Source: a virus
Length of the DNA: 17,717 nucleotides
Direction: 5' to 3' (one strand)
UHGV virus genome: UHGV-0179344
Each line of letters begins with the position of its first letter. The stretch's first letter is position 1. A program made the position numbers and the translations under genes. Positions 16,017 to 17,717 of the stretch are shown here, piece by piece. The notes beneath the pieces are model-generated. The model was not told where the DNA came from, searched no databases, and was given only the letters and a program-made list of their open reading frames with translations.

Positions 16017-17113
16017 TTATCTTCTGAATGTAACAGGTGCCGACTTCAGCACGTCCCGTTTTTTCTGCGTTACTGCAAAGTATCTGAATCCGTCAGATCC
16101 GTGCGATGTCCAGTCGTGAAGTGGCTTGTCTTTCCAGCACCCTCGCTTGTCATCCCACTCCTTGCGATAGCTCTCCAGGGCGTTAAGTCCTTCTTCGCAT
16201 TTCACGTCATCAAAGGCGCATCGCGGGAGGATTTCACGCACCTGCTCGATACCGTCGTCAACGCCAAGCTTTGGCACCACCTGGAAGGTGATCCCATATC
16301 TGGTGCCGTCAATTTCGTAGCCTTCACGCGCCAGCTCTCGCCGGGTCTTGGCATCAGAACCGAACTCGCGGTTGTCAATATCGTGCGGCCCCCAGTGAGC
16401 GGCATAGGTATAGCCTTTATCCTTCAGCACCTTCATGTAATGGCGCAGGCCCTCACCGCTGTTCTCGTAGTAGTCGATGACGTGATACTCCTCGCCAACG
16501 ATGCGAACGAACCAGATAGCGGTGGAGTCGCTGACCCCGATATCCCAGAAGGTGTGGACAGGGAGGTGAGAGTTATCAGGAAGAGCACCAATGCGCTTCT
16601 GCTCGTAGAGCTTGCGGAACTGCTTAGCGTAGTAGGCACCTTCAACCGACTGCTGGAATGCTTCCGCTGGGATTGACGGATACTCCCGCTTCATGTCATC
16701 GCCGAGCGTTTTCTCTTTGGCGTAATACCAGGCCCGCTGACGCTCGTTAAGCACAATGCCGTACTTCGCCTCAAGCTCAGCGAAATAATCGCTCAGCCGC
16801 TGCGGTAGAGCCTCTACGGGGTCAATTGCATACAGGGCATTCTTCCACCAACTGAAAAAGAAGAATTTCCAGTCTAGAGATGAGAGCAACTTGCCCTGAA
16901 GTTGTGCTTTCTCAGCCGACTGACAGTAATCGAAGAAGTAACCAGCCCGGCCTTCCGCAGTGCTTTCAATCGTCGTGAAACAGTCGCTTGATACTGCCTC
17001 AAAAGCACCAGTGACAATCTCTCGGGCCTTGTCGGGAAACTTGGCGCAGATCTTCCCGAACTCGGAAACGTGCAGGTAGCGCAGCGTACCGCCACGGAAA
17101 GATGTGCTGATAT
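16017..17113 (-). pseudogene. Terminase large subunit, 5'-truncated by IS insertion (ATPase N-terminus missing, nuclease domain present)
   Basis: Track ORF 16017..17195 contains FWDIGVSDSTAIWF and WGPHDID, terminase nuclease-type acidic motifs, but its first ~27 codons lie inside the IS terminal repeat region. There is no Walker A and no plausible start downstream of the junction. Confidence 0.6.
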
Positions 17114-17717
17114 TGTTGTGGTCAACTAAAACTGGCCACCGCGTTAGAGTTTTTCCAGTATCGGTTTTCTGATTCGTTTGGTGGTAACCCACCATTATAT
17201 TCGTGCGGTCTTAGTGCGCTGTAATATCCAACGATATAGTCCGTTATTGCGTGAGCTGCATCGCTGAAGCTTACATAGCCCGTCGCTGGCACCCATTCGT
17301 TCTTCAGACTCCTGAAGAAGCGCTCCATTGGGCTGTTATCCCAGCAGTTTCCACGCCGACTCATACTCTGCCTGATCCGGTATCGCCACAGTAACTGCCG
17401 GAACTGCCTGCTCGTATAATGACTGCCTTGATCGCTGTGGAACATCACCCCGACGGGCTTACCACGGGTTTCCCATGCCATTTCCAGTGCTTTCATGGTA
17501 AGCCTGCTGTCCGGCGAGAACGACATGGCCCAGCCCACTGGTTTTCTTGCGAACAGGTCGAGAACAACGGCGAGGTACGCCCAGCGCTTACCCGTCCAGA
17601 TATAGGTCACATCACCGCACCACACCTGATTTGGTTCCGTTACGGCGAACTGTCGCTCAAGATGATTCGGGATAGCAACGTGCTCATGACCGCCACGCTT
17701 ATACCGGTGAGTCGGCT
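17114..17717 (-). mobile_element. IS3-family insertion sequence (IS911-like), right end; element continues beyond the window
   Basis: Terminal sequence TGTTGTGGTCAACTAAAACTGGCCACCGCGTTAGAG starting near 17114 resembles IS911-type terminal inverted repeats from memory; adjacent DDE transposase ORF. Exact boundary uncertain by a few bp. Confidence 0.7.
17122..17717 (-). CDS. IS3-family transposase OrfB (DDE integrase domain), 3' portion
   Basis: Translation carries the catalytic triad region ([32 protein letters not shown]); in my reading the frame stays open upstream of the track start (GTG 17625) to the window edge (..[21 protein letters not shown]). Confidence 0.8.

Follow-up and report, generated by a model that had tools for sequence, protein, structure and literature searches.

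What interrupted the large terminase gene (terL) at one end of this viral DNA, and can a phage genome with such a gene still package itself? Both questions were raised by a sequence-only reading of the window, that is, the whole 17,717-nt stretch analysed here (UHGV virus genome UHGV-0179344), which had proposed an IS3-family element inserted in terL and a cryptic prophage. Our analysis makes it very probable that the element ISEc52 transposed into terL of a prophage of the gut bacterium Leclercia at codon Tyr130 of 494 codons, so that the ATPase domain was split and self-packaging was probably lost.

Positions 16017-17717 were compared with complete E. coli genomes by megablast. The match was confined to query bases 1098-1701, corresponding to window positions 17114-17717, and was found at thousands of places in E. 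coli. All bases (604/604) were identical to ISEc52 of E. coli, the matched features were annotated as 'IS3-like element ISEc52 family transposase', and more than 1,200 E. coli records had at least 99% identity to the ISEc52 part of the window. The window end at 17717 falls within the element, and the transposase has the same orientation as terL. The following features were assigned to this part:

17114..17717, minus strand: right-hand 604 bp (48%) of the 1,249-bp ISEc52 (IS3 family), 100% identical to E. coli copies
17122..17715, minus strand: C-terminal 197 codons of the transposase OrfB with the DDE/rve catalytic domain, from translation, Pfam rve and NCBIfam
17114..17149, minus strand: right terminal inverted repeat (IRR) of ISEc52, at which the flanks of three independent copies diverge exactly

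The OrfB stop codon lies at 17122-17124, 8 nt from the IS tip, and the reading frame runs off the window end. The OrfB fragment matched Pfam rve with E=5.4e-32 and the NCBIfam equivalog transpos_IS3 with 235.9 bits (cut-off 160; profile positions 188-368 of 369), which, together with the identity to ISEc52, confirmed the assignment to the IS3 family made earlier. The contexts WCGDVTY, HSDQGSH, and SPMERFF were present in the translation, and their D, D, and E residues are, by analogy, the putative catalytic triad. Several of the 100%-identical E. coli matches that we examined were a truncated copy from the mhpA region (L003, L004, L006), in which ISEc52 is nested among IS256 fragments within mhpA. 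IS30 fragments were present as well in two of these three loci, which represent a conserved IS 'graveyard'.

The end of the element was determined by alignment with two full ISEc52 copies from E. coli PK6 (L007) and ET490 (L008), which occur in contexts unrelated to each other. The window part differed from these copies (1504-2752) by 3 and 1 mismatches, respectively. All three sequences converged at TGTTGTGGTCAAC..., which is position 17114, and were unrelated to the left of it; the IS end that had been placed at about 17114 is therefore exact. On the plus strand the IRR reads TGTTGTGGTCAACTAAAACTGGCCACCGCGTTAGAG, beginning with TG at 17114, and the end of the element on the transposase strand is ...CACAACA. 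The left end of this copy lies beyond the window. In the full copies, 25 of the first 40 positions of IRR and IRL matched, and the termini were TG...CA. These copies are 1,249 bp long, have a frameshift site AAAAAAG (A6G) at IS position 324, and are annotated with 'programmed frameshift'; that part of the element is beyond the window end. The ends of ISEc52 and the start of OrfA presumably resemble those of IS911. The repeat at 17114-17150 thus does match an IS end, the IRR of ISEc52, which we take to be IS911-like. Target-site duplications of the IS3 family are 3 bp, sometimes 4 bp, in length. The ET490 copy was flanked by a 3-bp TAC duplication, and the PK6 copy had no matching target duplication.

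The minus-strand reading frame at 16017..17195 encodes 392 aa and is a chimera of IS and terL sequence. Its composition around the junction is as follows:

17115..17195, minus strand: codons 1-27 of the chimeric frame, IS DNA out of frame with orfB
17111..17113, minus strand: predicted copy of the target-site duplication, ATA on the terL strand and TAT on the plus strand, abutting the IS tip
16017..17113, minus strand: 3' fragment of terL, comprising bases 2-3 of codon Tyr130, codons 131-494 and the stop codon, delimited by homology to intact alleles

Codons 1-27 (17195-17115) were wholly IS-encoded, in agreement with the earlier estimate of about 27 codons, and had no homology to intact TerL in the alignment. 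Codon 28 (AAT) straddles the junction with one IS base and two terL bases. From residue 29, equivalent to Ile131, the frame gave a gap-free alignment with residues 131-494 of intact terminases of 494 aa. For the DNA alignment at the break we used the intact alleles L009 and L010, which read ...GGC GGC TCG CTA TAT ATC AGC..., while in the window the IS sequence ...CACAACA is followed directly by ATATCAGC... The IS tip abuts the second base of codon Tyr130, and in both protein and DNA alignments the terL homology runs right up to this tip. The alignment with IS ends and intact terminases, suggested previously as a check, thus placed the ISEc52 tip at 17114 and the terL sequence from residue 131 on. 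The end of ISEc52 is fused to terL at codon 130, far beyond chance, because 604 of 604 bases are identical to the element and the junction coincides with its terminus. The ATA duplication was predicted by comparing CTATATATCAGC of the intact allele with the IS end and adjoining ATATCAGC in the window; the second copy would lie outside the window.

The chimeric frame is best regarded as a gene-caller artefact, the first 27 codons of which are not terminase sequence. A misleading gene call had been foreseen, and the frame of IS codons plus terL was indeed called as a protein on two ENA contigs. For annotation this means that a gene caller gives a 392-aa 'terminase' in which residues 1-27 derive from the IS. 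The chimeric protein has already been deposited in public collections, and tools for prophage completeness that seek a mere terminase hit would score this prophage as intact. We also considered an outward hybrid promoter at the IS end that would drive the terL fragment or the portal gene. A consensus scan of 15900-17717 revealed no sigma-70-like promoter, and the idea was rejected; a TTGACC hexamer is located 7 nt from the IS tip, and no usable -10 element at the proper spacing was seen by eye.

The interrupted gene was identified by its homologues. When the part outside the IS was searched against phage genomes with tblastn, relatives with 79-86% identity were found in Hafnia phage Pocitis76, Cronobacter phage phiES15, and Erwinia, Klebsiella, and Pseudomonas phages, and these proteins were mostly annotated as the terminase large subunit. 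In the phage relatives terL has 496 codons and is located between terS and the portal gene. Even closer were alleles of 494 aa: the fragment had 98.6% identity over 364 aa to the intact P0001 and 98.4% identity to each of P0123 from E. coli and P0126 from Mixta calida. It codes for the latter half of the ATPase domain and for the entire nuclease domain, and residues 1-130 are absent.

No Pfam or NCBIfam model reached its threshold for this TerL family, intact homologues included, and searches of PDB sequences with a single protein and with a profile gave no match. Therefore, fold comparison and PHROGs were used for an independent check. The intact homologue matched phrog_2 'terminase large subunit' with E=5.5e-36, while the window fragment matched only phrog_2472/26724, 'unknown function'. 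The AlphaFold model of the intact P0001 was of moderate confidence overall (mean pLDDT 68.7), with values below 50 in the P-loop region and good confidence across most of both domains. In a Foldseek search of this model against the PDB, 42 of the 42 hits with E<=1e-3 were large terminases, including T4 gp17, D6E, HK97, Sf6, the ATPase domain of P74-26, and the nuclease domains of P22 and SPP1. The nuclease domain of the model matched those of P22 (4dkw), SPP1 (2wc9/2wbn), and G20c with TM scores of 0.45-0.58 normalised to the target. The core of this domain in the window is:

16092..16544, minus strand: nuclease-domain core with the acidic residues D218, D272, D274, and D368 (numbering of the chimeric frame), defined by invariant columns

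In the numbering of the intact protein, D218, D272, and D368 are D320, D374, and D470. These three residues are all encoded in the window and were invariant in the homologue alignment; D274 (376 in the intact protein) was invariant in a three-sequence alignment only. The model of the intact homologue indicates that the retained C-terminal part has a terminase nuclease fold and that the domain is complete, in line with the nuclease-domain motifs noticed before.

The family itself is widespread, with 6,598 proteins at E<=1e-50 in a search of a large protein collection. PHROGs splits it into phrog_26724 (N-terminal 192 aa) and phrog_2472 (C-terminal 324 aa). Having no match in Pfam, NCBIfam, or PDB sequences, it represents an annotation gap.

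Two ATPase motifs could be located in the family, one on either side of the break. The Walker A loop KARQLGFTT, at residues 53-61 of intact homologues, is missing from the window frame. The second motif is retained:

17061..17084, minus strand: Walker B-like strand with the catalytic Glu, LRYLHVSE, located by conservation and hhalign

LRYLHVSE comprises residues 38-45 of the chimeric frame, or 140-147 of the intact protein. Both motifs were invariant in 52 homologues, with S and E as the invariant residues in LRYLHVSE. By hhalign, KARQLGFTT was paired with SRQLGKTT of T4 gp17 and LRYLHVSE with MIYIDE, in an overall match that was weak (probability 8.5%, E=0.004) but paired the motifs in the expected way. 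SRQLGKTT is the Walker A of T4 gp17, and MIYIDE is its Walker B. The absence of the ATPase N-terminus including Walker A, as claimed earlier, was borne out: residues 1-130 are missing, the loop that aligns with T4 gp17 SRQLGKT is among them, and a Walker A encoded wholly to the left of 17114 was looked for and was absent there. As far as the motif assignment goes, the IS break falls within the ATPase domain, with Walker A on one side and Walker B with the catalytic Glu on the other. The window gene is, as judged from its sequence, a TerL fragment, not a functional member of the family, because residues 1-130 with the Walker A P-loop are absent.

Directly downstream of terL the phage genome continues with the structural genes:

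14550..16010, minus strand: portal gene, phrog_145 with E=1.4e-133 and Pfam DUF4055

Starting 7 nt beyond the terL stop codon, the portal gene is the first in a head-tail module that fills the remaining window on the same strand as terL. The module encodes the portal, a MuF-like head morphogenesis protein, the scaffold, and the major capsid protein, followed by the tail tube, chaperones, tape measure, and minor tail proteins. Upstream of terL, intact relatives have terS directly adjacent, whereas the window has the IS. A Rha/anti-repressor-like gene of 184 aa (6944-7498, minus strand; phrog_518 with E=6.6e-80, Pfam Phage_pRha and ORF11CD3) sits inside the tail module, between the tail-chaperone frames (7994-8443 and 7677-7937) and the tape-measure gene (3234-6503), as a regulatory 'moron' in the late operon. 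The antisense plus-strand frames 15993-16676 and 15204-15962 had no PHROG matches and were treated as spurious. No RNA families were detected in the window by an Rfam gathering search.

The source of this DNA is a short-read metagenome-assembled genome (MAG), and the genomic position of the prophage was established from an overlapping assembly. The ENA metagenome contig ERZ27296168 k141_3793 (58.9 kb) begins inside the IS, 64 nt past the window end, and continues onward through genes for a J-like protein, a tailspike, and an integrase and through tRNA-Arg(CCU) to yfdC. Because this contig continues via the integrase and tRNA-Arg(CCU) into yfdC, the window DNA is an integrated prophage of siphovirus type, beside tRNA-Arg(CCU)/yfdC of Leclercia adecarboxylata. 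E. coli was rejected as the host: the yfdC/tRNA-Arg flank was only ~79% identical to E. coli, and phage proteins identical to those of the window are named from the Leclercia adecarboxylata MAG GCA_032477755.1. The integrase (389 aa; L011, 18832-20483) adjoins tRNA-Arg(CCU) and yfdC; this is the tail-fibre end of the prophage, and transcription of the integrase gene points inward. The tRNA-Arg(CCU)/yfdC site is also the one used by intS/CPS-53-type elements of E. coli.

Five public contigs (ENA, NCBI, Logan) carry the portal gene of the window, and none of them extends past the IS; the longest upstream extent is a start 668 nt inside it. By assembly, the depth reached in the IS was 96 nt for the NCBI contig, 604 nt for the window, and 668 nt for the ENA contig. 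Two assemblies thus reach deeper into the IS than k-mer overlap would predict for a genome that contained the whole IS more than once. The other end of the window and the end of the NCBI contig break no more than 22 nt apart, inside the J-like tail gene. The available contigs contain the head and tail genes as well as the end with the integrase and tRNA-Arg; terS and the lysis and early genes are on none of them. The genes for packaging, head, tail, lysis, regulation, and integration did not form a complete set in the window prophage, in which terL is interrupted.

According to the explanation that we favour, ISEc52 (1,249 bp) would have transposed into the prophage terL within codon Tyr130, with element and gene oriented alike. 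Were the insertion a simple one that duplicated 3 bp (ATA), it would interrupt the intact-site sequence ...GGCGGCTCGCTATATATCAGCAC..., and the predicted left junction would consist of ...GGCGGCTCGCTATATA joined to TGAAGTGGTTTACTG with the ATA duplication, i.e., ...GGCGGCTCGCTATATA joined to TGAAGTGGTTTACTGAATTTGGCCACC. The predicted N-terminal fragment would be 131 aa long and end with ...GGSLYI, its stop codon TGA being supplied by the left IS end (TGAAGTGG). The sequence data suggest that the event was recent, because the IS shares 100% identity with active-looking copies at other locations and the structural genes next to it remain intact.

The other side of the insertion was searched for in public data. 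The left IS junction and the 5' terL fragment were on none of the five contigs, all of which stop inside the IS. The exact junction of terL and IS was not found in viral, genome, and JGI metagenome contig collections, and an exact-match look-up in the protein collection gave none of 16 N-terminal fragments of 131 aa whose sequences had been guessed from the closest intact terL alleles. Two 365-aa proteins starting with MSTSFRGG (P0084, P0120) were considered as candidates for a natural split of TerL at the same residue. They were rejected as artefacts, their sources being a scaffold with a run of Ns and a short contig that fuses terS to terL at a shared GAGCTTGTC. These proteins (loci L014 1013-1560; L015 1-324) start almost exactly at the IS breakpoint. 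A truncated member of the same 90% TerL cluster, P0134 (181 aa, three Logan contigs), begins with a foreign N-terminal sequence, MRRRSGIAAV, that is fused to TerL within the nuclease domain (GDSTAIWF...), and may reflect an independent disruption event.

The same observations could be read in another way, namely that the junction is an IS-associated rearrangement in which an adjacent deletion or ISEc52 x ISEc52 recombination removed the 5' end of terL. In that case terS and the early genes were perhaps lost as well, and the remnant would consist of the structural half and the integrase. Nothing past the IS was seen on any of the five contigs, and the PK6 copy (L007), having no matching target duplication, demonstrates that rearranged ISEc52 copies exist. 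However, short-read assemblers are expected to break in a multi-copy IS, so these breaks are uninformative on a deletion, and the absence of all 16 guessed 5' fragments from the protein collection rested on exact, guessed sequences. In addition, the terL homology reaches the exact IS tip, as a fresh transposition predicts, and the IS and all neighbouring phage genes are undecayed. We consider a rearrangement unlikely and simple transposition of ISEc52 into terL the better account of the junction.

As for the consequences of such a transposition, Walker A would be on one fragment and Walker B with the nuclease domain on another, so that neither fragment would form an ATP-binding site. Having no ATPase site, the prophage would be unable to power, translocate, or cut and terminate the packaging of its own DNA. 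The prophage thus probably cannot package its own DNA because neither terL fragment can form the ATPase site; loss of self-packaging is the likely consequence. This prediction agrees with one part of the earlier claim that the prophage is cryptic. The word 'cryptic' itself is stronger than the evidence, and a precedent for packaging in trans is known. In the prophage Sp4 of E. coli O157:H7 Sakai, nu1, encoding the small subunit of the terminase, is disrupted by an IS, and Sp4 DNA is nonetheless packaged, for which the Sp14 terminase is most likely responsible (Asadulghani et al., 2009; PMC2669165). Because Sp4 with a disrupted nu1 is still packaged, 'packaging-defective on its own' is a justified description of the window prophage, but not 'dead'; neither 'cryptic' nor 'dead' is proven.

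It is accordingly conceivable, and in our estimate quite improbable, that the insertion is real and that the prophage is still packaged by the terminase of a related prophage in the same cell, or is repaired by recombination. Sp4 is a direct precedent for the former (PMC2669165). Prophages that are closely related and have an intact terL were found in other Leclercia MAGs and in E. coli, Mixta, and Pantoea. The breaks of both the window and the NCBI contig in the J-like gene may hint at a second similar prophage; against this, the J-like gene is contiguous in the ENA contig. There is a still smaller chance that the IS-split prophage is a helper-dependent element, packaged in trans by a resident or superinfecting phage, or with terL restored by recombination. 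If so, the IS insertion would turn an autonomous phage into a hitcher, not a fossil, in which the head-tail module and the integrase persist. Even less likely is the expression of an IS-initiated C-terminal TerL fragment (Walker B and nuclease) with an activity of its own.

Finally, there is very little chance that the interrupted allele is an assembly artefact or a minority variant of the metagenome beside a dominant Leclercia with intact terL. In favour of this reading, the MAG was assembled from short reads, every contig terminates within the IS, and the intact alleles of 98.6% identity were located on contigs from two other samples. Against it, terL meets the IS at the very last base of the element, unlike a random chimera, and there is no common sequence by which a k=141 graph could be bridged. 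Moreover, the junction was assembled in ENA, NCBI, and Logan contigs, two of which run >600 nt into the IS, and if both alleles were abundant, the contig break would be expected at 17114, not inside the IS. Chimeric assembly is thus an unlikely source of the junction.

Transposition of ISEc52 into terL represents a real but ordinary route of prophage disabling and opens no new question. Insertion of IS elements into the genes of prophages, among them terminase genes, is well documented, and ISEc52, the TerL family, and the phenomenon of IS-disabled prophages were all already known. The locus is one more case of an IS disabling a prophage soon after lysogeny, and it bears on whether this Leclercia prophage still spreads on its own.

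In comparison with other ISEc52 copies, the window part is the same in sequence, DDE/rve transposase, TG...CA termini, and IRR type (GTGGTCAAC...TGGCCACC); it is distinguished only by its host, a Leclercia MAG, and by its location at terL codon 130. The terL gene belongs to a common family with its intact relatives, which have the gene order terS-terL-portal and the ATPase and RNase H-like nuclease folds. The window protein is 74-80% identical to TerL of Pocitis76 and phiES15 over the whole chimeric frame and 98% identical to the intact prophage alleles P0001, P0123, and P0126 over the 364 retained residues. In contrast to these relatives, the window copy has no residues 1-130 and carries 27 IS-encoded codons in their place. 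The more distant T4 gp17 has Walker A and B motifs that pair with those of the family. The closest parallel at the level of the prophage is Sp4, in which an IS is likewise present in a terminase gene of an otherwise largely intact lambdoid-type prophage and the packaging enzyme of its own is not intact. In Sp4 the small subunit was hit, whereas the insertion in the window affects the large subunit and divides its ATPase domain; packaging in trans was demonstrated experimentally for Sp4.
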